The notes below the pieces were generated by a model. The model saw only the letters and a program-made list of their open reading frames with translations, was not told the origin of the DNA and made no database searches. Source: Bacteroidaceae bacterium (GTDB lineage Bacteria > Bacteroidota > Bacteroidia > Bacteroidales > Bacteroidaceae). Taken from it: 64,000 nt of DNA. This document shows, piece by piece, positions 1,593-16,265 of this stretch. The position numbers were made by a program, and so were the translations under genes. Location: assembly GCA_045616065.1 (NCBI GenBank), contig JAZLFZ010000076.1, positions 20,216 through 84,215 on the forward strand. The letters are read 5' to 3'. Each line of letters starts with the position of its first letter. Within the stretch, counting starts at the first letter, position 1.

Positions 1593-4217
1593 ATGAGAAG
1601 AAAGACATGTATTGTGGCAGCTCTTTGCTTTGCCCTTGGCAGCGTGCATGCCCAGCAGCTGCCTTACCAGAACAACAACCTGTCGGCGCACGAGCGTGCT
1701 GTGGACCTTTGTAGCCGTCTGACCCTTGAGGAGAAGGCACAGCTGATGCTCGACGATTCGCCCGCCATACCCCGACTGGGCATCAAGCGCTGGCAGTGGT
1801 GGAGCGAGGCGCTGCATGGCTACGCCAATATGGGCAATGTGACCAACTTTCCTGAGCCCATCGGAATGGCCGCTTCGTTCAATGATAAGTTGGTGCAGCG
1901 GGTCTTCGATGCCGTGAGCACCGAGGCGCGTGCCAAGTGGAACGTGCTGCAGAAGAATGGTGACGAGGTGACGCGTTTCCACGCTCTGAGTGTCTGGACA
2001 CCCAACGTGAATATCTTTCGCGACCCACGCTGGGGACGCGGTCAGGAGACGTATGGTGAGGATCCTTATCTGACGGGCTTGATGGGCAATGCAGTGGTGC
2101 GAGGCCTGCAGGGTCCCGAGGATGCCAAGTACCGCAAACTGTGGGCTTGTGCCAAACATTATGCCGTGCACAGCGGTCCGGAGTGGAGTCGCCATACGGC
2201 CGATGTGAACAATGTCTCATTGCGCGACCTCTACGAGACCTATCTGCCTGCCTTCAAGACGCTTGTGGAGGACGGCCAGGTTCGCGAGGTGATGTGCGCC
2301 TATCAGCGTTATGACAACGAGCCTTGCTGCTCGAGCACCCGTATCCTGCAGCAGATTCTGCGTGAGGAGTGGGGGTTCAAGTATCTGGTAGTCAGTGACT
2401 GCAGTGCCGTGTCGGATATCCATCAGACGCACAAGGTGGCCAGCGATGCCGTGCATTCGGCTGCTCGTGCTGCGCTGGCTGGAACGGATGTGGAGTGTGG
2501 TTACGACTATGCCTACAAGAGCATTCCCGATGCTGTGAAGCGTGGTCTCATTAGTCAAGCAGAGGTAGACAAGCACGTAGTGCGTCTGCTGGAGGGGCGC
2601 TTCGACCTAGGCGAGATGGACGATCCCTCACAGGTGGAGTGGAGCACGATTCCTGCCTCTGTGTGCGAGAGCAAAGAGCACCTCAACCTGGCCCTCGAAA
2701 TGGCACGACAGACGCAGGTGCTGCTGCAGAACCGTAACAATGCCTTGCCGCTCAAAAAGGGTGAGAAGGTGGCTGTCATCGGTCCCAACGCAGCCAACCA
2801 GACCATGATGTGGGGAAACTACAACGGTACGCCTACCACGACGGTGACCATACTGGACGGCATACGTAAGTATAACAGTAAGGTGAAATACATGCAGGGT
2901 TGCGACTTGACGGACGAGAACATCGTGACCGACCTCTTCGACCAATGTTCGTTTGAGGGTAGGAAGGGATTCAAGGGTACGTTCTGGAACAACACCAAGC
3001 GGGAGGGAACGCCTGTGACCACGGCCTACTATACCCGTCCCTTCAGTAAGACTACAGCTGGTAACTACCAGTTTGCCAACGGTGTGAACCTCACTGGGTT
3101 CAGCGCGCAGTACGAGACGGTGTTCCGCCCCAAGGAGTCGGGCGAGGTGGTCATCAACGTGGAGTCGGTGAGCCAGTTCGACGTGGTGGTTGACGGCAAG
3201 ACACTCACCCGGCAGAACACTTGGCGTGTGACGCCCACTCGCAATGTCTTGCAGGTTGTGGCAGGCAAGGAGTACAAGGTGGAGATTCATTTTGCACACG
3301 TGCCTACCTGGGGTGCAAGCATCAAGGTGAACATCGGCCGTGAGTCGCACATCGACTATCAGGCCCTCATCGACCAACTGAAGGGCATCGACAAGGTTAT
3401 CTTCGTGGGCGGTATTGCTCCCAGCCTCGAGGGCGAGGAGATGCCTGTGCAGATAGATGGCTTCAAGGGTGGCGATCGTACGCATATCGAGTTGCCCCTT
3501 GTGCAGCGTAACTTCATGAAAGCCTTGAAGGAGAGTGGCAAGCATGTTGTCTTCGTTTGCTGCTCTGGTTCGGCAATCGCGTTGGCACCTGAGAGCGAGT
3601 ACTGCGATGCCATACTGCAATCGTGGTATGCGGGTCAGGAGGGTGGCAAGGCTGTGGCCGAAGTGTTGTATGGTCAGTATAATCCCAGCGGCAAGCTGCC
3701 CATCACGTTCTATCGTGACAGCCAGCAGATCGGCGACTTCGAGGACTACAAGATGGAGGGTCGCACGTATCGTTACATGCGCCACGATAAGCCCCTCTTC
3801 CCCTTTGGTCATGGCCTGAGCTATACGACCTTTGAGATTGGCAAGGCTGCCCTGAGCAGTACCACACTGGATGTTACACTCGCTGGAGGAAAGCCCAGTC
3901 AGGCCAGCCTTAAGCTGTCCATACCCGTCAGCAACACGGGCAAGATGGATGGTACAGAGATTGTACAGCTCTACGTTCGTAATCCGCAAGACCCTGCAGG
4001 CCCGGTGATGCAGCTGCGTGGTTTCCAGCGCGTTGACGTCAAGGCAGGTCAGACCACCACGGCCGAGATACAGCTCGATGCCAAGTCGTTCGAATGGTTC
4101 GACGAGCAGACGGGCACTATCCATACCAAGTCCGGTCAGTACGAGTTGCTCTATGGCAACACGTCCGATGTCACCGCCTTGCAGTCCGCTATGGTAACCG
4201 TCGTCGACAAACGATAA
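1593..4217 (+). CDS. Glycoside hydrolase family 3 beta-glucosidase/beta-xylosidase with inserted PA14-like domain
   Basis: 874 aa with signal peptide MRRKTCIVAALCFALGSVHAQ. GH3 motifs are FRDPRWGRGQETYGEDP and YLVVSDCSAV (nucleophile region). A PA14-like segment of about 140 aa (FKGTFWNNTKREG...KVEIHFAHV) sits between the catalytic halves, followed by a C-terminal Fn3-like region. Confidence 0.93.
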   Translation: MRRKTCIVAALCFALGSVHAQQLPYQNNNLSAHERAVDLCSRLTLEEKAQLMLDDSPAIPRLGIKRWQWWSEALHGYANMGNVTNFPEPIGMAASFNDKLVQRVFDAVSTEARAKWNVLQKNGDEVTRFHALSVWTPNVNIFRDPRWGRGQETYGEDPYLTGLMGNAVVRGLQGPEDAKYRKLWACAKHYAVHSGPEWSRHTADVNNVSLRDLYETYLPAFKTLVEDGQVREVMCAYQRYDNEPCCSSTRILQQILREEWGFKYLVVSDCSAVSDIHQTHKVASDAVHSAARAALAGTDVECGYDYAYKSIPDAVKRGLISQAEVDKHVVRLLEGRFDLGEMDDPSQVEWSTIPASVCESKEHLNLALEMARQTQVLLQNRNNALPLKKGEKVAVIGPNAANQTMMWGNYNGTPTTTVTILDGIRKYNSKVKYMQGCDLTDENIVTDLFDQCSFEGRKGFKGTFWNNTKREGTPVTTAYYTRPFSKTTAGNYQFANGVNLTGFSAQYETVFRPKESGEVVINVESVSQFDVVVDGKTLTRQNTWRVTPTRNVLQVVAGKEYKVEIHFAHVPTWGASIKVNIGRESHIDYQALIDQLKGIDKVIFVGGIAPSLEGEEMPVQIDGFKGGDRTHIELPLVQRNFMKALKESGKHVVFVCCSGSAIALAPESEYCDAILQSWYAGQEGGKAVAEVLYGQYNPSGKLPITFYRDSQQIGDFEDYKMEGRTYRYMRHDKPLFPFGHGLSYTTFEIGKAALSSTTLDVTLAGGKPSQASLKLSIPVSNTGKMDGTEIVQLYVRNPQDPAGPVMQLRGFQRVDVKAGQTTTAEIQLDAKSFEWFDEQTGTIHTKSGQYELLYGNTSDVTALQSAMVTVVDKR

Positions 4218-4424
4218 GCATGTCACAGGGACAGGTCAGACTCTAATTTGCGTCTTTCAATCTGCAGAGAGTGCCTGGCGTCCGCAATTCCAGAACTGAA
4301 ATGCCGGTTAATTACCCTTTTGTTTTGCCGAATGACGAAATAATGTGACCAGTAATGTAGCCCACATTTTTAAAATTGAAGAAGAATAGAATACAAAAGT
4401 CCGAAGAACTAACATAAAGAAGAT

Positions 4425-4754
4425 ATGAAGAAAGTCATTAAAGCTGTTCTGCTCACTCTCTTCTCTGCCCACGCTATGGCTGAGAATATCCAAACCATTG
4501 TATACACTCCCACGCCAAAGATGGTATGCGAGAAATGCGAGAAAAAGATCAAGGACAACCTTCGATTCGTAAAAGGCACCAAGAAGATAGAGACATCACT
4601 CAAAGACCAGACCATCTCCATCACCTTTGATGCAGATAAGGCCAAGACTGACCAGTATGTAAAGGCGTTGGCCAAGCTGGGGCGCGAGGTAAAGGAGGTG
4701 AGTGTCTCAGATACGTCCGATAAGCAGTCAGGTAACCAATCGAATAGAAAATAG
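4425..4754 (+). CDS. Secreted heavy-metal-associated (HMA) domain protein
   Basis: 109 aa with signal peptide MKKVIKAVLLTLFSAHAMA, then an HMA-type CxxC motif (KMVCEKCEKKIKDNLRFVKG) and a Ser/Gln/Asn-rich tail. Confidence 0.8.
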   Translation: MKKVIKAVLLTLFSAHAMAENIQTIVYTPTPKMVCEKCEKKIKDNLRFVKGTKKIETSLKDQTISITFDADKAKTDQYVKALAKLGREVKEVSVSDTSDKQSGNQSNRK

Positions 4755-4985
4755 GTAGTGATATTCCATTTGGCACAAGCAGAAATGTCAATCCGAGGAA
4801 CTGCTTTTGCTGACGTGCAAATGCTGTTTTCTATTTAGCGACGTCTCACAATTTCCATCAAGGAAACACAAATCGTAGAGACGGGCTGATATTTGTATTT
4901 TGCCTGTCGGTAAAAGCCGTTCCTCGGGATAACATTACAGCTTAATGCCTAATAGCTTTTCGTTACCTGTTTTTCTTGTATACTG

Positions 4986-5034
4986 AAAAAGGGTGTATCA
5001 AATCGCTTTGCAGTGATTTGATACACCCTCTTTA
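4986..5034. terminator. Bidirectional rho-independent terminator
   Basis: 14-bp perfect stem gggtgtatcaaatc / gatttgatacaccc with a 10-nt loop, flanked by aaaaa on the left and tctttagttt on the right. It lies between convergent genes 4425-4754 (+) and 5057-6109 (-). Confidence 0.8.
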
Positions 5035-5056
5035 GTTTGAGAATGTTTTCTTTTCG

Positions 5057-6109
5057 CTAAAAAATGTTGTAGGCCAACTTAACTTCCAGAACGGGGAATA
5101 CGGGGAGGTTTTTGGCCAGATTACTGTATTTCTTGATGACGTTGCTTGTCACATCGACTTCTTTCAGTATGTCTATTGTACACCTGTTGATGATAGGATT
5201 CCTGCCATACTCGTCGTAAGTGATGTCGGTCGGACCGTTCTCATCGCCAACATATCCGTTGCAGTAAATCTTGGGAGTGCCCCAGATCATGATTCCTGCG
5301 TCGAAACCGAAATTCCAACGCTTGTCTTTGCCTAGTAATGTGTTATAGCCAAATCCTATATAGGGTTTGAAGGCATTGACAAACATCTCGGCCTTGAGAT
5401 TGCCCTGAGGGTCTGGATCCAGATAAAAGAAGCTTCCGTCAGAGAGAGTTCCCACATTCATTCCGATTCTGCCATAATACTTGAAGCCATCCTTCATGTA
5501 CTGTCCGGCATAAGGATCCATCTCGTAGCTTAAGTCGCCGATTGAGAGGCTAGGGTACTCGTATTCGTCCAGCGTCTGGGTCTGGTCATACATCTTGTTG
5601 TAGATGTTCATTGCCAGGGTGGTGATTTGCTCATTCACCGAGTTGCAGAAACTTATCGTCTTGCGTGAACCTACATAGAAACCGACAGAGAAATGCCAGT
5701 TCTTCTTGGCGAATGGATACCAGTCGAGAATTACCTTCCCATTGTAGTAGCCCATCTTACGTTCCATATCTACGATGCTGTCGACATCATTGTTCTGTAC
5801 AAAGCCGCGAAGGAACTTAACCAATCGGCCAGTTTTGTACTCTATCTGTGAGTCGGTGCCTTGTAACACGCCAAGACGTGTCATTTCGTATCCTTCAATG
5901 TCAGAAATCTTAGGCATCCACGAAAAGCCGGCACGCAACTTGAGGTTCTTATTCAGGGGAACACCCACGTCAAGACCCACTCCCGTTGTGCCTGCAGTGG
6001 CTCCTATCTCCATGTGCTCGAATGCATGGGAGCTTTCCAATCCGTAATGCGAATTCTGCGCAAAGACTGCACAAGGTATAAATGCAAGAAGATACAGGAA
6101 CTTTCTCAT
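5057..6109 (-). CDS. Outer-membrane beta-barrel protein (unassigned family), last gene of the surface operon
   Basis: 350 aa with signal peptide MRKFLYLLAFIPCAVFAQ, alternating hydrophobic strands and a C-terminal beta-signal ending LEVKLAYNIF. The start is 2 nt after the stop of the upstream gene. Confidence 0.7.
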   Translation of the reverse strand: MRKFLYLLAFIPCAVFAQNSHYGLESSHAFEHMEIGATAGTTGVGLDVGVPLNKNLKLRAGFSWMPKISDIEGYEMTRLGVLQGTDSQIEYKTGRLVKFLRGFVQNNDVDSIVDMERKMGYYNGKVILDWYPFAKKNWHFSVGFYVGSRKTISFCNSVNEQITTLAMNIYNKMYDQTQTLDEYEYPSLSIGDLSYEMDPYAGQYMKDGFKYYGRIGMNVGTLSDGSFFYLDPDPQGNLKAEMFVNAFKPYIGFGYNTLLGKDKRWNFGFDAGIMIWGTPKIYCNGYVGDENGPTDITYDEYGRNPIINRCTIDILKEVDVTSNVIKKYSNLAKNLPVFPVLEVKLAYNIF

Positions 6110-6111
6110 TT

Positions 6112-8235
6112 TTATTTAACGATATATTTGTGATTGTTCTTGATAACCAAACCCTTGCGGTTAGCAGAAGAGTTGAGCTTGCGACCATTGAGGTCGTAGG
6201 TTTTCTCCTTTGAATTAATGTTTCGGATGCCCTTGATTGCCGTTTCGGTGTTGGCTGACTGGTTGAAGGTGATATCCTTAGTAACAGTCTGTCCATCAAC
6301 GCCGGTTGCGGTGATGGTGACAACAAATCCTTGACGGGGTTCTTCGGTCTCGTTGGTTGAAACGCTGACAACACCATCTTTGAGGGTAAATCCTTCTACG
6401 GCATTCTTCACCTCATAGCTCAAGTCAACTTCTTTGTCTTCTACTGCACCACTTGTATATTTGACTGCCTGGGTTGCAATCACGTTAAGGCTGATGTCGT
6501 ATCTGCCTTCAACATAATGGAAGTTAACTTCCTTGTCCATGGGAGCGAGGTAGATTTCGCCGTAACTGATAACCTCGTTGGCTTGCTGATAGATGTCGAT
6601 AGAGCCGAATGTTACTTCGCAGTTCTTCAAAGCGTTGAAGTCCGTTCTCTCTGCTTTCAGTTCATTGCCTTGAGCATCGGTGAGTACGAGGGATGCGGGT
6701 TGACTTGTGCCAACGACACTTCTCTCCTTCAGAGTTCTCATCAGTGACTCATGCTCTATGTATTCGCCGTATGCAATAACCTCCTGCTGAGCAGAGACTT
6801 CACTGTCTTTATAACTTCCGTCAGAAAGGAAAGTACGAGTGATGTATGCATAGCTTACCTTAGCCATGGCTCTGTCCTTACCGCCGGCTGCGGGAATGTC
6901 TGTGCCCAATTCAGAGGTAGTAGCGGATACTGTTACGTCTTTTGCAATGAGAGCCTTACCGACTTCGGTGATAGTAGACTTCTTGGAAATCTGGTTGAAG
7001 GTAATGTCCTGTGTCGCTGTCTTATTGGCAGCACCTTTTGCGGTTACGGTCACAACAAATCCATTGCGTGCATCATCGGTGTTATTGCTGGTTGCGCTAA
7101 CAACACTTTCTTTCAAGTTGAAGCCTTCTACGGCATTCTTTATTGCATAGCTAATTTCTGCAGCCTTTTCTTCCGATGCACCGCTTGTGTACTTGAGGGT
7201 TTGGCTTGCCTTTACATTCTGTGCAATGTCGTATGTGCTTTCCTCGTATGAAAAGTTTACTTGTGTGTCCTTTACCTCGAGTTTGATGTCACTTGTCTCT
7301 GTGAGTGCGTTAGCCTCCTGATAGATGTCGAGAGGATTGATGCTAACCTCACAATCTTTCAGTGCATTAAGAACAGTTCCTTCCGCTTTCAATACTTTGC
7401 CATCGGCATCGGTAAGCTGAGGTGCAGTAGGTTGGCTCTTGCCAGCAATTGCTCTTTCCTTGATGGTTTGTTCTAACGAGGGCTTCTCTACATATTCGCC
7501 ATAAACCGTGATTTCCTTCTTTGCAGAAGCTTCACCATCTTTATAGGTTCCGTTTGACAAGAAGGTACGGGTGAAGTATGCATAGCTTACTTTAGCAACT
7601 GCTCTGTCCTTGCCACCGGCGGCGGGGATGTCCTTCCCCAGTTCTGATGTGGTGGTATAAACGGTTACGCCTGAAGCAATGTTAGCCTTGCCAATCTCTG
7701 TGATTATCTCAGGGATTGTCATCTTGGATACTTTGTCAGTAGGATAAACTTGGCCTTCTGCCGATCCATCCTTTGCGAGGTTCTGGTTGGTCACCTTAAC
7801 CTCGTAGCTGCCTGGTTTCATATCGGTAGAAGTCAGATAGTAGAATGTAAGGATGGCGCCAGAGGTACCGTGAATCTTTAAGTCGGGATCTGAGTGGTAG
7901 AGTGTTACTCGATAGAATCCGTCCTTGGGAGTTACATCGAAGTCCGCTCTGCAGGCTCCTTTCTTGAATTCGAAACGTGTCTCGGAGGCATCGCATTGCA
8001 CGTCGCCCTCGTCCAGAGCCAATGTCATACCTTGAGGCAGATAGAGGTCGAACATGAGGGAAGTGTATGTGTCGGCAACAGCGTTGACCAACTCTACATC
8101 GAAAGAATAATCCTTGTTGTAGTCGTTCTGTGTGATTCCTGCTTTTGCTTCGAAATCAACAATATGCAGGTAGTCTTCTGCCTTGGCTACTGTCAAGCCT
8201 AAGAGCATGACTAATGAAAGTAGAATCTTTTTCAT
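6112..8235 (-). CDS. Secreted surface protein: cohesin-like N-terminal module, two 244-aa tandem repeats, T9SS C-terminal sorting domain
   Basis: 707 aa with signal peptide MKKILLSLVMLLGLTVAKA. Residues ~20-155 show a beta-sandwich-like pattern (FDVELVNAV...LMFDLYLPQGMT...GSYEVKVTNQNLA). Residues 178-421 and 422-665 are clearly homologous. The C-terminus KTYDLNGRKLNSSANRKGLVIKNNHKYIVK resembles a Por secretion tail. Confidence 0.75.
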   Translation of the reverse strand: MKKILLSLVMLLGLTVAKAEDYLHIVDFEAKAGITQNDYNKDYSFDVELVNAVADTYTSLMFDLYLPQGMTLALDEGDVQCDASETRFEFKKGACRADFDVTPKDGFYRVTLYHSDPDLKIHGTSGAILTFYYLTSTDMKPGSYEVKVTNQNLAKDGSAEGQVYPTDKVSKMTIPEIITEIGKANIASGVTVYTTTSELGKDIPAAGGKDRAVAKVSYAYFTRTFLSNGTYKDGEASAKKEITVYGEYVEKPSLEQTIKERAIAGKSQPTAPQLTDADGKVLKAEGTVLNALKDCEVSINPLDIYQEANALTETSDIKLEVKDTQVNFSYEESTYDIAQNVKASQTLKYTSGASEEKAAEISYAIKNAVEGFNLKESVVSATSNNTDDARNGFVVTVTAKGAANKTATQDITFNQISKKSTITEVGKALIAKDVTVSATTSELGTDIPAAGGKDRAMAKVSYAYITRTFLSDGSYKDSEVSAQQEVIAYGEYIEHESLMRTLKERSVVGTSQPASLVLTDAQGNELKAERTDFNALKNCEVTFGSIDIYQQANEVISYGEIYLAPMDKEVNFHYVEGRYDISLNVIATQAVKYTSGAVEDKEVDLSYEVKNAVEGFTLKDGVVSVSTNETEEPRQGFVVTITATGVDGQTVTKDITFNQSANTETAIKGIRNINSKEKTYDLNGRKLNSSANRKGLVIKNNHKYIVK
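6241..7704 (-). repeat. In-frame tandem duplication, 2 x 732 nt (2 x 244 aa) inside CDS 6112-8235
   Basis: Both units start ITE(I/V)GKA.IA and end DITFNQ. They share long identical blocks, for example TTSELG.DIPAAGGKDRA.AKVSYAY.TRTFLS and KNAVEGF.LK..VVS. Confidence 0.9.
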
Positions 8236-8238
8236 TGT

Positions 8239-9486
8239 TTAATTGGTCTTTTTGATTATTTCGAGTACGCGAGTTACGTCACCCATGTTGATGCGTCCAT
8301 CCTTGTTGACGTCTGCATCATCAAACTTGGTGCCTGCTTTAATGATTTCCAATACTTTGGTAACATCACCCATGTTGACCTTATCGTCACCATTTACGTC
8401 ACCCTCTTTTTTCTTCAGTGATTCTAAGTACTTAAGGTATTCAGCGTATTCTGTTTCGTTCATCACCTTAAGTTGAGCGGGACAGTCGGCATCAACCTTC
8501 AGATATGCATGGTTGTGAGGGATGCATCGTACGTTGTTCTGCCATTGATCGTTGATCTTAACTCTCAAGGATACTGTGTTATTGCTTGTTGCAACGTTCG
8601 TAAAGGTGAGGTTGCCCTCTGCATCAACAGCCAAAAGGCGCATTGTGCTTGCATCATAAGGCACGAAGGCAGGTGACTTACCTGCATGGTTTAATCCGCT
8701 GCGGTCTGCGTTGGCAAAGTATACTCCTTGCATGATGTTGCCTGATGCCTTGTTACCTTCGTTTGTTGTGAGGTCCACTTTGTTGCCATCAGTTGTGGTT
8801 GAAGGGCACTCGACGAAGACGGGCTGATTCTTGGCAACGGTTCCAGTTATACTCTTAATAACTGCGACACCGTTTTCTTTGTCAATCTTGTTTACGTACC
8901 AGGTCTTTACGTCGTTCTTTGGGGTATAGGCAAAATCTGCATAGAAGGGGGTGTAGTGTTTGCCTTTAGCTGTGATGGTGGGGCGGAAACCAAAGTAGTT
9001 ATCGGAGTTGCTATCAACAGCAGGCACTTTCCACAGGCGGAAGGCCGACTTGCCGGGCATCTCCTGACTGGTTTTTGCACCCAGTATTCCTTGGTTTATA
9101 TTAAAGTCACTTGTACCTATCTCGTATAAGTATTGTCCGCTGGCAGAAACCATCCAGTTTTCACCTGCCTGGGTAATGCGCATATAGTAGTTCGTTAACT
9201 TATATACGCCTGTGCCCTGAGATGTCAGGTCGTACTTGGGATCAATGTACTTGATGTATAATACTGAACTGGGGTCGCTGATGGCCTCCTGAAGGTTGGG
9301 CCACAACTCAATAGCACCCATGTCCGCTCCTAATGTAGAAACATCTCCTACACAGTCCCTAACGTAAAGATATCTGCTAGAACCGACGTTCTGAACGCGG
9401 TAGAATCCTTCCGGTAGTGTCTTTTGAGCAAAGGCTGCCATGCATGAAAGCATGGCAGCCATAGCCATAGATAGAGTTTTTTTCAT
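8239..9486 (-). CDS. Secreted protein with C-terminal dockerin (two Ca-binding repeat segments)
   Basis: Preferred start is MKKTLSMAMAAMLSCMAAFAQ at 9486, 2 nt after the upstream stop; the ORF-track start 9504 would overlap the upstream gene. The C-terminus GDVNGDDKVNMGDVTKVLEII...ADVNKDGRINMGDVTRVLEII matches the duplicated DxNxDxx(I/V)xxxD loop-helix of dockerins. The N-terminal ~340 aa is unassigned. Confidence 0.8.
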   Translation of the reverse strand: MKKTLSMAMAAMLSCMAAFAQKTLPEGFYRVQNVGSSRYLYVRDCVGDVSTLGADMGAIELWPNLQEAISDPSSVLYIKYIDPKYDLTSQGTGVYKLTNYYMRITQAGENWMVSASGQYLYEIGTSDFNINQGILGAKTSQEMPGKSAFRLWKVPAVDSNSDNYFGFRPTITAKGKHYTPFYADFAYTPKNDVKTWYVNKIDKENGVAVIKSITGTVAKNQPVFVECPSTTTDGNKVDLTTNEGNKASGNIMQGVYFANADRSGLNHAGKSPAFVPYDASTMRLLAVDAEGNLTFTNVATSNNTVSLRVKINDQWQNNVRCIPHNHAYLKVDADCPAQLKVMNETEYAEYLKYLESLKKKEGDVNGDDKVNMGDVTKVLEIIKAGTKFDDADVNKDGRINMGDVTRVLEIIKKTN

Positions 9487-9488
9487 TC

Positions 9489-10652
9489 TTATTCTGCGAT
9501 ACAAATTGATACTCGGTTCAAGTCGTTGATATCGTAGGGCTGAACAGTGTCACCCTTTGAATCTACCTTGATGCGGCTTGAACTGATGCCAAACTTCTCC
9601 TTAAGGATCTTGGCAACCATTTCAGCACGGTTACGAGCATATTTGATGTTACCCTTTGCATTACCGGTACCCTTGTCTGCATAACCCGTGATGGATACGG
9701 TTGCTTCGGGATAGCGGTTCAAGTAGCTGGCAATATCTTCAACCTTAGGCATCTCAGCGCTGCTTACGTCTGACTTGCAGATGGTGAAGAATATGTCGCG
9801 ACGGATGGGCTCCTTGGCAGGCTTTTTAGCCTCGATACGGATAGTATCATGTACGGGAACCTCCACGATCTTGTCAACGTACACAACTTCAGGCTGCTTT
9901 GCGGGAACCTTCTTGGTAGTCTTGCCAAGAGCAATCTTCACACCAGCGAGGGTATTGAAATACCAGTCTACGTTGGTAGATTTCTTGCTGTTGTACTTGT
10001 CGCTAAGGAAGTTGATGTTGGCCTCGATGCCAACAGAAACACGCTTGCTTACCTTGAAGTCAAGAGCTGCACCAAACTGGCCAACGGGGAGAATCTGACT
10101 GCCATCCCAGAGGTACTCGAGCTTGCTAATCTCTTTAACCTCGGCCATGTTTTCTGCCGTAGTATAGCCGGCAATGTGGTTTGCTGCCAATCCCTGTGCG
10201 GTTGCAGCCTCACCGTTTGCCCAACCAATGTTGGCACCTACACCTGCGAACAGAGTGAAGTCAACGATACGCTTGGGGTTGAAACCGCCGATAGCGTTGG
10301 TGACGTTGAAGGTTGCATTCAGGGTGGGAGCTACGTAGTTCCATTTGTAGCCATAGTCAGCTGAATCCCAGCGATACTTGGGCTTTCCTTCGAAGTGAAT
10401 ACCGCCCTTGCTCTGCCAACCGCCAATGGTCAGACGAGCACCCCAAACCTTTGTGAAGTTGTAACCCACGGCAATCTGTGCATTGAGTGAGTTCAAGTCA
10501 CAGTCACTGATCTCGCCCAGAGTGTGCTGGAAGCCAAACTGGCCCTGTACATACCAGTGCGGGTTGAAGACCTCTTCAGTCTTCACTTCCTGCGCGGATG
10601 CATTGAAGCATCCGGCAGCAAGTAAAATCATTGAAAATATTGTTTTCTTCAT
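9489..10652 (-). CDS. OmpA-family outer membrane protein (beta-barrel N-domain plus peptidoglycan-binding OmpA-like C-domain)
   Basis: 387 aa with signal peptide MKKTIFSMILLAAGCFNASAQ. The C-terminal OmpA-like region is ITGYADKGTGNAKGNIKYARNRAEMVAKIL...RIKVDSKGDTVQPY. It is a paralog of the CDS at 18033-19208. Confidence 0.9.
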   Translation of the reverse strand: MKKTIFSMILLAAGCFNASAQEVKTEEVFNPHWYVQGQFGFQHTLGEISDCDLNSLNAQIAVGYNFTKVWGARLTIGGWQSKGGIHFEGKPKYRWDSADYGYKWNYVAPTLNATFNVTNAIGGFNPKRIVDFTLFAGVGANIGWANGEAATAQGLAANHIAGYTTAENMAEVKEISKLEYLWDGSQILPVGQFGAALDFKVSKRVSVGIEANINFLSDKYNSKKSTNVDWYFNTLAGVKIALGKTTKKVPAKQPEVVYVDKIVEVPVHDTIRIEAKKPAKEPIRRDIFFTICKSDVSSAEMPKVEDIASYLNRYPEATVSITGYADKGTGNAKGNIKYARNRAEMVAKILKEKFGISSSRIKVDSKGDTVQPYDINDLNRVSICIAE

Positions 10653-10689
10653 ATTCGTATAAACATATTATAATATGTACGCGCGAGGC

Positions 10690-13395
10690 TTACTTACACT
10701 TAACGTAGAATTCGCGGGTCTCCTGCTTACCAGCATAGTCGAGGCCAGAGTAAGAGAACTCATAGATAACGCCGCTCTTCAGACCGCTTACCTCAACGTT
10801 GGTCTGTGTGCCGGGGTAAACCTTGTTGATACCAGCGTTAACGGCATCGATAGCAGCCTTCTTCTCGGTCTCGTTTGCGAAGGGACCCCAAGCGTTGGTA
10901 ACGCAGAGGTGCTTCTTCCATGCGGGTACGAGGATTTCGGCGTTCAGGTTGGTCATCATTACGGTGAAGCTTGAGCTAACAGCGGGAGCGGTGGTCAAAG
11001 AACGACGCATGATGTTTACGCTGCCACCATCCTTGACGAGCAGTGCAAGCTCGAAGCGGCTCTCGATGCCAGAGTAGATGTAGTTCAGCTTGTTCCAGAT
11101 CTTGTCGATAATCTGATCCAAACGGTTGGTTACCTTGTCTGAGAGGTCAGCGTCCATGATCTTGTTCATGATGTCGAGTGCCTGCTGAGCAGCGTCTGCC
11201 ATATCATCGAGCATGTCGTTGAAGTCCTTCATGTCCTTGTTGAGAACACGATAGAGCTCAACTGCCTCCTGGCTGGTGATCTCAACGTTGGTGCAACCGC
11301 AGCTACCGCAGTCGAAGGTGATAACAACCTTTGAGGGATCTGCAGCGTGGTCGGGATCAGTCTCCTTGGTACCGAAGGTAACGTGCTTGATGCTGCCCTT
11401 CATGTCGTTGATGGTGTTGTAAGCCTGAGTCAGAGTACCATTCTTCTGGATAGTCTCGATAGCCTTCTTAATGGTCTTGTTCATGAAGTTGATCAGCTTG
11501 TCGTGACCGGGGAGCTCAGAAGGAATCTTAGAAAGAGACTCGTAACCGAAGGGCTTAATCAGAGCAGCCTGAATGTCTGCTGCAGACTTGATAATGTGCT
11601 TGTTGCCATCGTCGGTAGAGAGGTCGTCGCTGGTCTCGATGTTCAGGGCGTATGCCTTGGTCTGGAGAGCGTCAACGGTAGACTTCAGTGCGCTTACGAG
11701 GTCGCCGATATTGCTACTCTTGTTCATGATACCCTTAGCAGCAGCGATGTAAGAGTCGATGTCGATCTCAATCTTTTCGATGTTGTCGAACTCGCTAACA
11801 GTAGCAACAGACTCGTAGAAGCCAGTAGCGCGAGTGGGGGGGGTATAACCCATGTTCAAGGCGGTGTTTGAAACAGCAGCAGCGCTCAGGGCGATACCAC
11901 TCTTCTGACCCTTGGTGTTAACCAATGAGATGTCAGTGCCGGTGAAGTCAATCTGTGAGGGGTTGATGTTGTAGTAAACCTTACCGATCTCCTTAGAGTA
12001 GATGATATCGGGGCTAACGGTCTCGCGGTTCAGCGTTACGTATGTGTCATTAAGGATGGTTGAAGCCTCACCATAGTATGCAGCGTTGGTGGTGGGGAAC
12101 ATGACAGCGGTGCCAATCTCGCCACAGAAACCGAACAGCATGTTGGTGTTGATGCCGGTGCTAGTCTTCAGCATACCGAATACAGTGTTGTTAACACCAT
12201 TGATAGAGATGCTGGTTGCACGCTCCTTCAGGCTGTCGATGTACTTGAGAGCCTTCTCGATGTCATCAAGTGCCTTCTTAACCTTGGCGCCGAAGTCAGC
12301 GAGCTCAGATGCAGTCAGAAGCTTGTTGGGGTTGCCGAATGCCTTGGTGATTTCGTAAACGATAGCAACAGCGTTGTCGTATGCCTCGTGGTCGTGAGTG
12401 CAAGTTGCGTCACCCATGGTGTAAACCTCGGGATCACCAACGAACTTGATCCAGAACTTGCCATCGGTGGTCACACCATAGCTCTCGATCTCGGTGATAG
12501 AGTAGCCACCGCCACCGGTGCCATTGTCGCCCTTGTCGCCCTTGTCACCCTTGTCACCCTTGTCGCCCTGGTCACCCTTGTCACCTTGGTCGCCCTTAGC
12601 GCCCTTCAGTGACTCGAGCCACTCCTGCTCAGTGCCGGTGAAGCCATACTTAACAGCGATCTCGTATGCTGAGAGACCATTCTGGCCTGCTGCACGTACA
12701 CCGAGGTCGGTAGTGCCAATCCACCAGTTACCATTGTTGCCGATGTAGGGAGTCAAACCATCCTGGCCGTTCTGGCCGTTCTGGCCGTCCTGGCCGTTCT
12801 GACCCTGACCCTGACCGTTCTGGCCATCCTGACCATTCTGGCCATCCTGGCCGTCCTTGCCTTCTGCCTTAACGCCGGTGTTGACACCATCTACATACCA
12901 GTAGCCGTCAATAATCTCAACCTTGGGAGTGTGTCCGTCCTGGCCATTGAGACCATTCTGACCGTTCTGGCCATCCTGGCCGTTCAGACCATCCTTACCT
13001 TCTGCCTTGACACCGGTGTTGACACCATCGATGTACCAGTAGCCGTCGATAATCTGTACTGTGGTTGAGTGTCCATCCTGGCCGTTCTGGCCGTTCTGGC
13101 CATCCTGACCATTCAGACCGTCCTTACCAGCTGCACGCACGCCAGTGTCGGTAGTTCCGATCCACCAGTTGCCGTTAGAACCGATGTAGGGCGTCTCGCC
13201 GTCTTTGCCATCCTTAGCATTCTTAATCTTGCTGTACAAATCGTCGATCTTTGCCTGCAATTCTGCAATCTGAACGAGATTGTCCAAGCGTACTTCGTTA
13301 ATTGCGTCTTCATCATAGTCCTTACATGATGAAACCACCAGGGGTGTTACACACATGAACAACCCAACGTACTTTAAACTGCTGAAAAATTTCAT
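10690..13395 (-). CDS. Collagen-like repeat surface lipoprotein (first gene of the surface operon)
   Basis: 901 aa with a lipobox (LVVSSC, Cys24), a short coiled coil, then Gly-X-Y runs (GKDGLNGQDGQNGQNGQDG, GDQGDKGDQGDKGDKGDKGD) interleaved with IG.NGNWWIGTTD and IIDGYWY.DGVNTG modules. The C-terminal region of about 600 aa is unassigned. Confidence 0.85.
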   Translation of the reverse strand: MKFFSSLKYVGLFMCVTPLVVSSCKDYDEDAINEVRLDNLVQIAELQAKIDDLYSKIKNAKDGKDGETPYIGSNGNWWIGTTDTGVRAAGKDGLNGQDGQNGQNGQDGHSTTVQIIDGYWYIDGVNTGVKAEGKDGLNGQDGQNGQNGLNGQDGHTPKVEIIDGYWYVDGVNTGVKAEGKDGQDGQNGQDGQNGQGQGQNGQDGQNGQNGQDGLTPYIGNNGNWWIGTTDLGVRAAGQNGLSAYEIAVKYGFTGTEQEWLESLKGAKGDQGDKGDQGDKGDKGDKGDKGDNGTGGGGYSITEIESYGVTTDGKFWIKFVGDPEVYTMGDATCTHDHEAYDNAVAIVYEITKAFGNPNKLLTASELADFGAKVKKALDDIEKALKYIDSLKERATSISINGVNNTVFGMLKTSTGINTNMLFGFCGEIGTAVMFPTTNAAYYGEASTILNDTYVTLNRETVSPDIIYSKEIGKVYYNINPSQIDFTGTDISLVNTKGQKSGIALSAAAVSNTALNMGYTPPTRATGFYESVATVSEFDNIEKIEIDIDSYIAAAKGIMNKSSNIGDLVSALKSTVDALQTKAYALNIETSDDLSTDDGNKHIIKSAADIQAALIKPFGYESLSKIPSELPGHDKLINFMNKTIKKAIETIQKNGTLTQAYNTINDMKGSIKHVTFGTKETDPDHAADPSKVVITFDCGSCGCTNVEITSQEAVELYRVLNKDMKDFNDMLDDMADAAQQALDIMNKIMDADLSDKVTNRLDQIIDKIWNKLNYIYSGIESRFELALLVKDGGSVNIMRRSLTTAPAVSSSFTVMMTNLNAEILVPAWKKHLCVTNAWGPFANETEKKAAIDAVNAGINKVYPGTQTNVEVSGLKSGVIYEFSYSGLDYAGKQETREFYVKCK
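12508..13215 (-). repeat. Collagen-like Gly-X-Y coding repeats and duplicated modules
   Basis: Residues 61-296 of the 901-aa protein. The nucleotide runs of ggccagaacgg / ggtgacaaggg type units are visible on the plus strand as gccgttctggcc and cccttgtcaccc repeats. Confidence 0.9.
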
Positions 13396-13490
13396 AATGT
13401 TTAAAAATTAATAAATATTTTGGTTTTGTTTGATTAATCTAGATGTTCATTCTCTCTTACGCACAGACGCTTCTGTGCAATTATTGTTTG

Positions 13491-13498
13491 CAAAGTTA
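13491..13498 (-). promoter_or_regulatory. Bacteroidota -7 box TAACTTTG for the surface operon
   Basis: Reverse complement of caaagtta, 96 nt upstream of the ATG at 13395. The predicted 5' UTR begins with hairpin gcacaga-agcg-tctgtgc (13461-13478). Confidence 0.45.
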
Positions 13499-13663
13499 GT
13501 TATTTTTTTGTAATGGGCAATATCTTTTCGTCTAAAAATTGCCTTTTATATATAAAAAAGTATAAAAATGTGTGTTTCCTGACTTTTTTGCGCGTAAAAT
13601 GTCCTATTGTGTCCTTGTTTTGTGTCTAGGTGTGTTAATTTGAGCTGTCAAAAATCGCCCTGT

Positions 13664-14269
13664 TCAATTGCGTGCTTCATGCGGCATTACTATGCGATAT
13701 AAGTTGCATCCGACAAAGTTTCCGATTACTATTGAAATGTAAAAAAGAATTACCTCCGTTATGTGGGAAATGAGAAAGCTTGTTGGTACACATAAATAGT
13801 AGAAACCATCTGCTACACAGTGAGGAAAGCCACATGTTATGAAGAGAGGTACGCCAAACAGAAGTGGTAAATTATTTCCTTTTCTTGCAAAAGTTACGGC
13901 TGTTGTCATGATAAAGCCACATCCGATTGATGTGACCGCTCCTCGCCATGGTCCCATGGCCAGTCGTCCTTCTAGTATATTTTGAGCTGTTTCCTGCAGA
14001 GGAAATGGGCTACATCTAACCATCAGACTCATTAATCCGCAACCTACAAGATTAAAAAATAGAATGGCGAACAGTGTTCCGAGTTCGCCTTTTTTGATAA
14101 AGCCAGCGGTACCCGTATACAATTTTAGGCCGTAGTTGACGACTGTCAATAAGCCGAAAGCAAACAAGACAGCTCCGACGATAGACTTTTCTGCCAGATA
14201 GCCAAATCCGGCTGTGCCGATGGCGATTCCCGAGAGGATGGAAGAGCGTGCGATGATTTTCCAATCCAT
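13664..14269 (-). CDS. Small polytopic membrane protein, formate/nitrite transporter (FNT)-like
   Basis: 201 aa and hydrophobic throughout. The motif CGFPHCVADGFY resembles the FNT GFEHSIAN signature. It is shorter than canonical FNT proteins, so the assignment is tentative. Confidence 0.5.
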   Translation of the reverse strand: MDWKIIARSSILSGIAIGTAGFGYLAEKSIVGAVLFAFGLLTVVNYGLKLYTGTAGFIKKGELGTLFAILFFNLVGCGLMSLMVRCSPFPLQETAQNILEGRLAMGPWRGAVTSIGCGFIMTTAVTFARKGNNLPLLFGVPLFITCGFPHCVADGFYYLCVPTSFLISHITEVILFYISIVIGNFVGCNLYRIVMPHEARN

Positions 14270-14307
14270 AAAGGATGACGTGTTTAGTTTAAAATATAAT
14301 GGTTTTA

Positions 14308-14315
14308 CAAAGGTA
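14308..14315 (-). promoter_or_regulatory. -7 box TACCTTTG for 13664-14269
   Basis: Reverse complement of caaaggta, 39 nt upstream of the ATG at 14269. Confidence 0.45.
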
Positions 14316-14439
14316 CACTTTCTTCTTCAGTCTCGCAAATATTGCGGCTTATTTTTTTCGTTTACCCCTTATATCGTGTTATTTTTATACTTTTGGTACG
14401 AATTTTTGCAGAAGATTTTGTTACATTATTTATTTTAAC

Positions 14440-14447
14440 TAATTTTG
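14440..14447 (+). promoter_or_regulatory. -7 box TAATTTTG for the nuclease gene
   Basis: taattttg lies 70 nt upstream of the ATG at 14517. Confidence 0.4.
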
Positions 14448-14516
14448 TAAAATTGTAGCGGATTGGCGGTCTCATGATGCTACGTATAAATAATTAATGG
14501 TTACTTTTTTGTTCCC

Positions 14517-16265
14517 ATGAAAGCGAGAATTCATTTTATATTTACCCTTTTTATGATGCTGTGTATGCATTCGTATGCACAGTTCAACAAGGCATCCTAC
14601 TATGCCAAGGCCGATGGCAAGAAAGGTGAGGCTCTGAAGTCAGCTCTTGCCAGTATTATCTCGTCTCATACCTCATTGAGCTACGATGGTCTTTACGAAG
14701 TGTACAAGACCACCGATGTGCGTTCTGATGGTAAGATATGGGACATGTATTCCAACATGACCAATTATGATCCCGACAAAGGACATTCGGGTTCCTATAA
14801 GAAGGAGGGAGACTGCTTTAATCGTGAGCATTCCATTCCTCAAAGTGTTTTCAGTGAGCAGTCGCCAATGAAGACTGACATCTATCATGTAATTCCTACA
14901 GATGGTTATGTCAACAACCGTCGTTCCAACTATTGTTTTGGTGAGGTGGGAACTATTGAGTATCAGTCTAATGGCGGATTCAGTAAGGTTGGCTCTCCAT
15001 CAAGCCGTACGAAACAGATGGGCTGCAGTGAGTCCCGTGTATTTGAACCGAACGACGAGTATAAGGGGGATCAGGCACGCAGTTGTTTCTATTTTGTGAC
15101 GTGCTATGAATCCCGTCTATCTTCTTTCAAACATTATGGCATGTTCAGTAACAATTCCTATCCCGGCATGACGGAATGGGCTATTACGTTGATGATGGAA
15201 TGGTCGCAGAAAGATCAAGTAAGCAAAAAGGAGACGGACCGCATAGAAGCAGCCTATATAAAGCAGAAAAACCGGAATCCCTTCATTGATTTCCCCGGTC
15301 TCGAACAATATATTTGGGGAACATACAAGAATGTTGCCTTCAACGTGACAGATTATGTGAACCCCTACGATGGTATTATCATGCCTTCTGATCCTGACGA
15401 GCCTGTCGTTGATCCTGATGAGCCTGTCGTTGATCCTGACGAGCCTGTCGTAGAACCTGACATTACGGGTGACTATGCTTATCAGAAAGTAACGTCAAAT
15501 CTTTCAGATTGGCGAGGTGAGTATCTCTTTGTGTATGAGGATGGAAGTCTGGCTTTGAACAGTGCTTCCGATAATATTGATGGAGCAGGCAATGGTGTTG
15601 CTGTTAAGATAGAAGATGGTTTGATACAACCTTCTGCCAATGCGGATGCTGCCGTGTTTACCGTGACTTCTGGCAATGCAGGTTCCTATTTCGTAATGAC
15701 CTCTACGGGCGAATATGTAGGAAATGTGAGTGGCAAGAATGCAATAGATACGTCTGTTGAATCGCCAATACCATGTCACATTTCTGTCTCAAATGGTAAT
15801 CTTGTACTTGAATCCAATCTGTCTGGAAATAGCCTTATGTATTTGAAATACAATAAGTCTGCTACGCGTTTCCGCTTCTATAAGTCCGGGCAGGCCGATG
15901 TGTCTATCTACAAGAAAGTGTATAAGCAGACAGAAGGCACTGACGAACCCGGCACCGATGATCCCGACACCGACGAACCCGGTACTGACGATCCCGGCAT
16001 TGACGAACCCGGTACTGATGATCCCGGTGCTGAAGAGCCCGGTATAGATGAACCTGGTACTGACGAACCTAGCACCGACGAACCCAGTACTGACAATCCC
16101 GGAGAAGATACTCCTGCGGAAGGCGGTGAAGATGATAATACGAACGTTGAAAAAGTGGTCAATAGAAATGCTAAGCGTATTATCGTTGATATTACGGGAC
16201 GACGCCTTTCGCGTGTTCCCGCTAAGGGTATCTACTTCGTGAATGGTAGAAAGTATGTACGTTAG
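14517..16265 (+). CDS. Secreted endonuclease I family nuclease with acidic Pro-rich linkers and T9SS C-terminal domain
   Basis: 582 aa with a signal peptide. Endonuclease I motifs are FNREHSIPQSVF and DIYHVIPTDGYVNNRRSNYCFGEV. The tail VDITGRRLSRVPAKGIYFVNGRKYVR resembles a Por secretion tail. Confidence 0.85.
   Translation: MKARIHFIFTLFMMLCMHSYAQFNKASYYAKADGKKGEALKSALASIISSHTSLSYDGLYEVYKTTDVRSDGKIWDMYSNMTNYDPDKGHSGSYKKEGDCFNREHSIPQSVFSEQSPMKTDIYHVIPTDGYVNNRRSNYCFGEVGTIEYQSNGGFSKVGSPSSRTKQMGCSESRVFEPNDEYKGDQARSCFYFVTCYESRLSSFKHYGMFSNNSYPGMTEWAITLMMEWSQKDQVSKKETDRIEAAYIKQKNRNPFIDFPGLEQYIWGTYKNVAFNVTDYVNPYDGIIMPSDPDEPVVDPDEPVVDPDEPVVEPDITGDYAYQKVTSNLSDWRGEYLFVYEDGSLALNSASDNIDGAGNGVAVKIEDGLIQPSANADAAVFTVTSGNAGSYFVMTSTGEYVGNVSGKNAIDTSVESPIPCHISVSNGNLVLESNLSGNSLMYLKYNKSATRFRFYKSGQADVSIYKKVYKQTEGTDEPGTDDPDTDEPGTDDPGIDEPGTDDPGAEEPGIDEPGTDEPSTDEPSTDNPGEDTPAEGGEDDNTNVEKVVNRNAKRIIVDITGRRLSRVPAKGIYFVNGRKYVR
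15390..15452 (+). repeat. 21-nt tandem repeat x3 encoding DPDEPVV
   Basis: gatcctga(c/t)gagcctgtcgt(t/a) occurs three times in frame. Confidence 0.9.
15936..16108 (+). repeat. Degenerate 15-nt coding repeats (GTDEP / GTDDP / GIDEP / STDEP)
   Basis: Protein run GTDEPGTDDPDTDEPGTDDPGIDEPGTDDPGAEEPGIDEPGTDEPSTDEPSTDNPGED. Confidence 0.85.

Follow-up and report, generated by a model that had tools for sequence, protein, structure and literature searches.

A probable split-gene variant of a Bacteroidales envelope cassette, with a dockerin-cohesin pair between its head and stalk proteins

The pairing of cohesins with dockerins is textbook knowledge for the cellulosomes of Gram-positive bacteria. 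Among the cargo of the type IX secretion system (T9SS), type A proteins include lectin adhesins such as Flavobacterium johnsoniae RemA, and type B proteins are held by PorP/SprF-like barrels together with the OmpA-domain protein PorE, as in PG1035-PorP-PorE of P. gingivalis and in SprB-SprF. The subject of this study is a set of five genes, here named P1 to P5, at positions 5057-13395 (all on the minus strand) of a 64-kb stretch of Bacteroidaceae DNA; the whole analysed stretch is called the window. One of its products ends in a dockerin, and that of the next gene opens with a divergent cohesin. For dockerins of rumen Prevotella and Bacteroides, the available text of a metagenomic survey (Bensoussan et al. 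2016, PMC6487960) reports their presence, with only 1.7% of the cohesins found being assigned to Bacteroidetes; within the available part of the literature on these dockerins, no partner or role was found described.

We consider it fairly probable that the five genes are a variant, with one gene split in two, of an envelope cassette of four genes that is conserved in Bacteroidales of gut and rumen. A head-stalk-tail protein that is a single chain in relatives would here be rebuilt by a dockerin-cohesin contact, giving a surface adhesin or glycan-capture fibril with a lectin-like tip. Neither Pfam, NCBIfam nor the literature holds a characterised family that covers the locus, which agrees with the original prediction made from the sequence alone, and in our literature search neither the cassette nor any Bacteroidales system that joins a cohesin-dockerin pair to T9SS turned up. 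What is added to that prediction is the interpretation as a split cassette variant, the beta-trefoil, lectin-like head, and comparative evidence for a cognate, class-specific link between dockerin and cohesin.

The gene split and the conserved cassette

The five genes are the following.
10690-13395, minus strand: P1, 901 amino acids (aa), lipoprotein with a collagen-like stalk
9489-10652, minus strand: P2, 387 aa, OmpA-like protein
8239-9486, minus strand: P3, 415 aa counted from the ATG (MKKTLS), head protein with dockerin
6112-8235, minus strand: P4, 707 aa, adaptor with cohesin-like module, repeats and tail
5057-6109, minus strand: P5, 350 aa, candidate outer-membrane beta-barrel

For P3, the mechanical start of the open reading frame (ORF) is a TTG at 9504; the ATG start was adopted instead.

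Homologs of P4 occur in two architectures: one begins with the cohesin, as P4 does, and the other with a domain of about 350 aa (P0004-P0007 and P0010). The latter domain is the N-terminal head of P3. Residues 7-354 of P3 align with residues 1-347 of P0007 at 62% identity (E = 2e-161), and the identity between the P3 head and P0004 is 48%. In the single-chain proteins, the end of the head (...EYQAYLSSL) is directly joined to VTEIGKAKIA..., the start of a P4-type repeat; at exactly this head-repeat junction, the window has the dockerin of P3 and its stop codon, then, after a single codon, the ATG of P4 with its signal peptide and the cohesin. Furthermore, the window and the P0007 locus (L002) have common flanking genes (Gate, GH43, tRNA_edit, Zn_peptidase and Endonuclease_1), which indicates that the single-chain form and the split form lie at corresponding chromosomal places.

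A scan with the head alignment, restricted to one genome per species, gave 42 loci, and the window proteins were mapped on 44 non-redundant loci. Nearly all of the 42 belong to metagenome-assembled genomes of Bacteroidales from rumen, horse hindgut and human gut; in addition, there is the isolate Prevotella lacticifex JCM 34664, whose cassette (L044) is of the tail type. Four cassette-bearing contigs (L011, L013, L014 and L040) are labelled Acutalibacteraceae, Methanomethylophilaceae archaeon, Alistipes ihumii and Lachnospiraceae, and the non-Bacteroidales labels among them are probably binning errors. The order of the cassette is P1 C-terminal region, P2, head, P5. Among the 44 loci, the head is present in all, the P1 C-terminal region in 37 (by tblastn), P2 in 38 and P5 in 39, where some loci that lack a cassette gene are short or end near the head gene. 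P5 adjoins the head gene in 39 of the 44 and is often convergent with it. The dockerin/cohesin form with all five genes is also found in L048, L049 and L066, and it is partial in L068, L070, L071 and L001, where the contig ends or the OmpA gene is missing or truncated. The original prediction had been staked on co-occurrence of the genes in related genomes; P1, P2, head and P5 do recur in about 40 loci, and the five-gene form in the three just named.

Across the 74 head homologs and the loci, four kinds of C-terminus follow the head: the tail directly (proteins of about 370-400 aa), P4-type repeats plus tail, InlB B-repeats (Flg_new) plus tail, or a dockerin. In a neighbor-joining tree of the head domain, which is without support values and hence indicative, the dockerin types fall in at least three places among the tail types. 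This interchange of C-termini implies that the dockerin replaces the covalent connection to the tail.

Head, dockerin and cohesin

The domains of P3 and P4 are arranged as follows.
9022-9423, minus strand: P3 residues 22-155, ricin-type beta-trefoil, lectin-like, from an AlphaFold2 (AF2) model and Foldseek
8452-9009, minus strand: P3 residues 160-345, second beta-rich head domain, with high-confidence AF2 strands
8242-8409, minus strand: P3 residues 360-415, dockerin with two near-identical calcium-loop/helix segments, DVNGDDKVNMGDVTKVLEIIK and DVNKDGRINMGDVTRVLEIIK
7711-8178, minus strand: P4 residues 20-175, divergent cohesin module, from profile, intermediates and predicted fold
6991-7704, minus strand: P4 repeat 1, residues 178-415, 238 aa
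6259-6972, minus strand: P4 repeat 2, residues 422-659, 238 aa
6115-6249, minus strand: P4 residues 663-707, C-terminal tail of 45 aa (..KTYDLNGRKL..KGLVIKNNHKYIVK)

Behind a signal peptide with cleavage between AFA and Q, the N-terminal domain of P3 has a predicted ricin-type beta-trefoil fold. The AF2 model, computed with 65 homologs, reaches a predicted local distance difference test score (pLDDT) of 91 and a predicted template-modelling score (pTM) of 0.83. The best Foldseek matches of the trefoil are ricin-B-type fungal lectins (PPL 9kl3, RSA 4g9m, 3nbc, 4i4s; MOA, CNL, BEL), with target-normalised template-modelling (TM) scores of 0.6-0.66 to the ricin-B lectins; beta-trefoils as a fold also comprise non-lectins, for instance fascin and protease inhibitors. 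P3 itself has no Pfam match for a ricin-type lectin (PF14200 or PF00652), and PF14200 matches 13 of 42 head homologs (best E = 9.6e-5). The second beta domain has no specific match in PDB or BFVD; the head profile has none among PDB sequences, and against BFVD the P3 model matches beta-trefoils only.

The dockerin of P3 is recognised directly by Dockerin_1 (PF00404; residues 362-407, 32.1 bits against a cut-off of 22.9, E = 1.3e-7). It contains two DxNxDxxxxxxD calcium-binding loops with helices, DVNGDDKVNMGD and DVNKDGRINMGD, and the model places helices at 372-384 and 401-414 with pLDDT 84-95. Judged by this motif, the loops presumably bind calcium. An exact-sequence look-up returned no database record for the window's P3 or P4.

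At the start of P4, the original prediction had proposed a cohesin-like module of about 135 aa. The assignment stands on profile, intermediates and fold, but the module is about 156 aa long (residues 20-175) and lacks a match to Pfam Cohesin. We regard it as a divergent cohesin because NCBI naming, the PDB profile match, Pfam-positive intermediates and the predicted fold agree, even though the direct search with the hidden Markov model (HMM) alone failed. NCBI gives the name 'cohesin domain-containing protein' to P0002, the closest full-length homolog of P4 (41% identity); despite this name, Pfam Cohesin does not match it. A profile, A2, was built from the five available modules. Against PDB it finds 5lxv (R. 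flavefaciens ScaC; E = 0.0017, profile positions 7-122), with 3ul4, 5n5p and 5m2o next; a phmmer search of PDB with full-length P4 gave no hits. An exhaustive search with A2 recovered 4228 cluster representatives at E ≤ 0.001, and among 60 A2 relatives scanned, Pfam Cohesin is present in 27 (best E = 6.9e-21) and Dockerin_1 in 35. Among precomputed Pfam results, the 202-aa L068 ortholog shows a weak match to Cohesin. The AF2 model of P4 residues 20-176 is all-beta with ten strands (pLDDT 67, pTM 0.69), and its top Foldseek matches in PDB are mostly cohesins (2jh2, 5lxv, 5n5p, 3ul4, 2xdh, 4uyq, 6kgc, 1g1k; TM 0.5-0.7). A cohesin-type fold (a flattened jelly-roll sandwich of beta-strands), on which the original prediction had made itself dependent, is thus what the modelling predicts. 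Between the two repeats that follow, identity is 60% (E = 3e-102), and the C-terminal part of repeat 1 has a weak BACON-like match.

Within the clade of the window, eight loci with a dockerin-bearing head were compared: the window itself, L001, L048, L049, L066, L068, L070 and L071. In all eight, the head gene is directly followed by one for an adaptor with signal peptide, cohesin, repeats in varying number and tail (in L071 the tail lies beyond the contig end), and the cohesins match the A2 HMM at E-values from 1e-26 to 5e-69. The number of P4-type repeats varies across orthologs (0, 1, 2, 4, or at least 4), and a P5-like gene comes next after the adaptor in each of the seven loci that extend that far. 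The smallest adaptor, in L068 (5155-5763, plus strand), has 202 aa and consists of signal peptide, cohesin and tail, with zero spacer repeats. By the residues that follow the calcium loops, three classes of dockerin can be told apart: NMGDVT, as in the window; V(A)DIQ, as in L049; and I(T/V)DAT, as in L001, the last having a longer linker. The cohesins divide into three classes that match these. Dockerin identity between loci strongly tracks cohesin identity (Mantel r = 0.88, p = 0.0015), although the eight pairs are a small sample that includes some close relatives. The partial correlation given head identity is likewise 0.88, head against cohesin gives r = 0.33, and head identity itself is nearly flat (53-70%) among the eight loci. 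The L071 head, for example, is as near to the window head as any (60%), and both its dockerin and its cohesin are of another class.

Hence there is strong genomic evidence that the P3 dockerin and the P4 cohesin are a cognate pair, since single-chain orthologs exist, the two genes are adjacent in eight of eight loci, their classes co-vary, and the window contains this one dockerin and this one cohesin module only. The ligand-receptor pair of the original prediction thereby gains backing from gene fusion/fission at orthologous loci and from dockerin-cohesin co-variation.

A second clade of dockerin-bearing heads (L011, L013, L014, L017 and L031), more remote from the window head, has dockerins of the DTQDVL type. 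Genes for P1, head and P5 lie near one another in these loci, with P2 also in L011, L017 and L031; L031 ends before P5, and in L011 an unrelated ATPase-like ORF stands between the head gene and P5. The cohesin partner of this clade must be encoded elsewhere.

The A2 family as a whole has a scaffoldin-like look. Its 146 best representatives (P0089-P0234, the four homologs of the query left out) possess one to eight modules each, almost all of them at least two; 107 contain a dockerin and 55 a tail of the P4 type, and the other domains in A2-family proteins include BspA-type leucine-rich repeats, Big_2 and InlB repeats. These architectures suggest a larger scaffoldin-like network built on this cohesin family. 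A metagenome scan with the P4 alignment recovered remote BACON-type relatives only and no new dockerin-cohesin pairs.

The other envelope proteins and the operon layout

The remaining products, and the signals around the operon, have these features.
13324-13395, minus strand: P1 signal peptide with lipobox (..VVSS-C24); the KDYDED after the cysteine resembles the lipoprotein export signal (LES)
12496-13218, minus strand: P1 residues 60-300, G-X-Y region interleaved with NGNWWIG / DGYWYIDG segments
10693-12405, minus strand: P1 residues 331-901, conserved C-terminal region, no known domain
9534-9788, minus strand: P2 residues 289-373, C-terminal OmpA domain, peptidoglycan-binding by family
13491-13498, minus strand: TAACTTTG box, putative Bacteroidetes-type -7 promoter box, about 95 nucleotides (nt) upstream of P1
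4985-5029, minus strand: terminator-like hairpin of intrinsic type, 18-bp stem at 4990-5029, then TTTTT

In P1, the collagen-like part consists of five G-X-Y runs of 6-11 triplets each, and Pfam Collagen (PF01391) matches with 36.1 bits against a cut-off of 27.2 (E = 5.6e-9). Together with this match, those of OmpA in P2 (E = 8.1e-12) and of Dockerin_1 in P3 (E = 1.3e-7) bear out the domain labels of the original prediction, and its lipobox (VSSC, then KDYDED), signal peptides and LAYNIF terminus are all legible in the sequence; DUF4988, which it had also brought up, matched none of the five proteins in Pfam and NCBIfam scans, and that idea was abandoned. The Bacteroidetes LES has the consensus K-(D/E)2 (PMC5080379), with which the KDYDED after the lipobox cysteine of P1 agrees. 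In the P1 family, S-C is invariant in 33 homologs, S-C-K/N-D-x-D/E is kept in 33-37, and the consensus reads SCKDYDED; surface exposure of P1 is thus suggested by its motif. The N-terminal stalk is collagen-like in six of 33 family members, the others having mostly coiled-coil-type Pfam matches, and against PDB the family profile matches many coiled coils, including trimeric reovirus sigma-1, HA2 and SadA. For the C-terminal region of about 570 aa, no specific globular family was found, Pfam and PDB profile matches being mainly to coiled coils; a homology search with this region found seven homologs, none of them named.

P2 matches OmpA (PF00691) with 45.8 bits against a cut-off of 27.2, and its N-terminal part is presumed to be a beta-barrel; orthologs have weak OMP_b-brl matches. 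P5 ends in LAYNIF. The window protein has no match in Pfam and none to OMP_CarO (NF038067, a family of 8-stranded barrels) in NCBIfam, and of 31 family members 13 match OMP_CarO at E ≤ 1 (best 7.9e-7) and five match OMP_b-brl. The family profile also matches CarO in PDB (4rl9, E = 0.008). CarO is the only recurrent match, with no similarity to PorP/SprF, PorQ or PorV found in Pfam and NCBIfam for P5 or its family. P5 is hence a candidate outer-membrane beta-barrel, distantly CarO-like. Going by their families, P2 and P5 should be outer-membrane proteins, P2 with affinity for peptidoglycan. A 350-aa ORF at 329-1381 was considered as a paralog of P5 and ruled out on comparison. A second OmpA-like gene (18033-19208, minus strand, 391 aa, weak OmpA match) lies about 5 kb from the cassette; L001 has an OmpA-like gene of equal length (391 aa) in the corresponding position, and its cassette itself is without an OmpA gene.

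Re-reading of the sequence reproduces the five minus-strand ORFs of the original prediction, with gaps of 37, 2, 3 and 2 nt from P1 to P5, as well as the TAnnTTTG box upstream at 13491-13498 and the hairpin with its 18-bp stem (4990-5029) and TTTTT downstream on the same strand. The TAACTTTG box is the sole minus-strand TAnnTTTG within 5057-13500; across the window, such boxes are enriched (44 observed against about 25 expected). An Rfam search of 4000-15000 gave no matches. A common transcript of P1 to P5 is plausible, the spacing of the genes being the ground for it. P3 and P4 share a reading frame, with only the stop codon and one sense codon between them (8233-8241, minus strand); this is probably a coincidence, because their equivalents in L048 are spaced 8 nt apart and out of frame. 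The G+C content is 45-46% over P5, P4 and P3 (4500-9000), about 49-51% over P2 and P1, 52-55% in the GH3 and GH43/Gate regions on either side, and only 40% in the stretch from 13.5 to 15 kb.

Secretion, rival readings and known systems

The original prediction had given P4 a T9SS C-terminal domain (CTD). Direct HMM searches did not bear this label out: neither TIGR04183 nor PF18962 matches P4, and the homologous tails stay below threshold. Scanned in isolation, they reach 14.5-20.7 bits on TIGR04183, whose cut-off is 23 bits, and the canonical CTD of the related multi-cohesin protein P0113 scores 49.6 bits. Among the heads, TIGR04183 is still the commonest NCBIfam match (top in 11 of 42, best E = 0.021, all below the cut-off), and it is the top match in four of six head-family tails scanned alone; for a type B CTD (TIGR04131), P4 has no match at E ≤ 1. 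A tail HMM matches head proteins and cohesin adaptors and also an unrelated protein, the Endonuclease I encoded at 14517-16265 of the window (plus strand, 582 aa, Pfam E = 1.5e-63), which ends in a tail like that of P4 (..IIVDITGRRLSRVPAKGIYFVNGRKYVR). Because it terminates this unrelated enzyme too, the tail is a general sorting element and not specific to the cassette; like a T9SS CTD, it sits at the extreme C-terminus of otherwise unrelated Sec-exported proteins. We read it as a possible truncated form of the type A CTD. In L002, a tail-bearing Endonuclease I ortholog directly adjoins the cassette. The enzyme in the window has tandem repeats rich in Asp, Glu and Pro at 15389-15461 and 15936-16102.

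According to the split-cassette model, P1 to P5 would all be exported by Sec, because each has a signal peptide. P1 would be lipidated and flipped to the cell surface, where it may form a fibrous stalk; P2 and P5 would reside in the outer membrane, with P2 held on peptidoglycan. P4 would be sorted through its shortened, type A-like tail, probably by T9SS. The P3 dockerin would sit on the P4 cohesin, presumably in a calcium-dependent manner, so that the lectin head of P3 is carried on the two-repeat stalk of P4, as an equivalent of the relatives' single-chain head-stalk-tail that does without a peptide bond. Since P3 has no outer-membrane signal of its own, its co-export with P4 is implied; the two would bind in the periplasm and then leave together. 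P1, P2 and P5 may form one complex with this pair. As to the role of the cassette, our best guess, drawn from the predicted beta-trefoil and the surface-type spacer modules, is adhesion or glycan capture.

Several observations weigh against this model. P3 has a Sec signal only and no recognisable route across the outer membrane, and no case is known to us in which T9SS transports a partner that is bound non-covalently. The conserved tail, at about 40-45 residues, is roughly half a canonical T9SS CTD (an immunoglobulin-like beta-sandwich of about 70-80 residues); TIGR04183 matches neither the P4 tail nor that of the nuclease in the window, and a Pfam scan of the ten ORFs flanking the operon, and of those alone, revealed no T9SS gene. 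Pfam Cohesin matches P4 at no E ≤ 1 and its close homologs at no E ≤ 10, the AF2 model of the module is of moderate confidence only, and the co-variation comes from few pairs. A search with the cohesin HMM gave nothing within 10 kb of the second-clade heads, so that adjacency of dockerin and cohesin is not universal. Nor is the five-gene operon a fixed unit, because P5 lies on the opposite strand in most loci and the OmpA gene of L001 stands outside the cassette. Finally, sugar binding by the P3 head is a prediction from its fold.

The most far-reaching version of the model is that P3 would reach the surface solely as a folded passenger on the T9SS substrate P4, by secretion of a non-covalent complex, and that this one-to-one pair would be the minimal form of a much larger 'plug-and-display' network. 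We consider this possible but doubtful.

What could account for the short tail otherwise is a role as an anchoring motif linked to the cassette rather than as a T9SS signal, for instance as a strand bound by the P5 or P2 barrels, which would hold head, stalk and tail in place by a logic resembling that of type B cargo (PorP-like barrels plus PorE) with unrelated proteins. In some 39 of the 44 loci P5 and P2 are neighbors of the head gene, the tail is below the T9SS thresholds and about half the normal length, and a tail-bearing nuclease is found near the cassette in both the window and L002. We nevertheless regard such anchoring as unlikely: TIGR04183 remains the best and most recurrent match of the tail, related multi-cohesin proteins such as P0113 end in canonical CTDs, the presence of the tail on an unrelated enzyme is what would be expected of a general secretion signal, P5 has no similarity to PorP, PorQ or PorV, and the crossing of the outer membrane would still be unexplained.

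The whole assembly could also be periplasmic or lie on the inner face of the outer membrane, as an envelope brace in which a trimeric, Lpp-like P1 and the OmpA protein tie the membrane to peptidoglycan and the dockerin-cohesin pair stays in the periplasm. The Sec-only signal of P3, the peptidoglycan-binding family of P2, the coiled-coil matches of the P1 family (trimeric sigma-1, HA2 and SadA among them) and a tail that is no recognised CTD would all suit this arrangement. It is improbable, however, given the conserved acidic LES-like motif of P1, which is typical of surface lipoproteins, the lectin-type beta-trefoil of the head, the alternative stalks, built from modules typical of surface proteins (InlB B-repeats and BACON-like repeats), and a tail of the identical type on a secreted-type Endonuclease I. 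Least probable of all is that P3 and P4 are not partners, with P3 docking on a multi-cohesin scaffoldin encoded elsewhere, P4 recruiting other dockerins, and their adjacency reflecting shared regulation: relatives of the P4 cohesin do occur two to eight per scaffoldin-like protein, many with dockerins, and the second dockerin-head clade has no cohesin nearby, but adjacency is complete in the window's own clade, the classes match three to three independent of head divergence, the split falls exactly at the head-repeat junction of the single-chain orthologs, and the 64 kb hold one dockerin and one cohesin.

If the split-cassette model is right, the locus gives a Bacteroidales dockerin a partner, a genomic context and, in its single-chain relatives, a natural control. 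It also raises a problem for type IX secretion, namely how a dockerin protein with nothing but a Sec signal would cross the outer membrane. The carriers of the conserved four-gene cassette are abundant Bacteroidales of the rumen and hindgut, and its lectin-like head may play a part in their attachment to glycans of plants or of the host. For surface display in Bacteroidales, the three classes of co-varying dockerins and cohesins might be put to use as orthogonal connectors.

With T9SS type A cargo such as RemA, the tailed proteins of the cassette share the Sec signal and a C-terminal segment with a GxYxx...KxxxK-like motif, and a surface lectin function is predicted here as well; the tail differs in its length of about 45 aa and in falling below the TIGR04183 cut-off. 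The resemblance to type B cargo lies in gene logic: the cargo gene has as neighbors the genes of a small barrel in the outer membrane and of an OmpA-domain protein that binds peptidoglycan. In sequence the systems are unrelated, P5 being distantly CarO-like and not PorP/SprF, and P2 resembling PorE through its OmpA domain alone.

The locus is not a cellulosome or amylosome, since it has a single cohesin and no enzyme; the five proteins comprise one cohesin, one dockerin and no carbohydrate-active enzyme domain, as the original prediction had stated for cellulosomes. In the type I pairs of cellulosomes (R. flavefaciens ScaC, 5LXV; Clostridium thermocellum OlpA, 3UL4), the dockerin has duplicated calcium-loop/helix segments like those of P3, and type I cohesins are the nearest matches of the P4 beta-sandwich in both sequence and fold. 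The near-identity of the two P3 segments is also a feature of dockerins with a dual binding mode. What differs is the 1:1 ratio of cohesin to dockerin without scaffoldin or glycoside hydrolase, the diderm Bacteroidales host, the lectin-like cargo, a T9SS-like tail on P4 instead of an SLH or sortase anchor, and a cohesin too divergent for Pfam. The metagenomic dockerins of PMC6487960 come from the same taxa and habitat and are likewise type-I-like dockerins on non-CAZyme proteins; as far as its available text goes, no cohesin partner, locus context or function is described for them, whereas here the partner lies next door.

Closest in use are the non-cellulosomal pairs. In the toxin/glycosidase pairs of Clostridium perfringens (2JH2, 2VO8, 2W1N), cohesin and dockerin simply join two secreted proteins, as they would here, and 2JH2 is among the best fold matches of the P4 cohesin; in R. 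albus and R. bromii, a single cohesin anchors a protein to the cell in a similar manner (PMC6118326, PMC4611034). These are Gram-positive systems assembled outside a single membrane, while the assembly proposed here requires passage across an outer membrane. They differ, too, in that the pair described here replaces a covalent link that is present in its orthologs.

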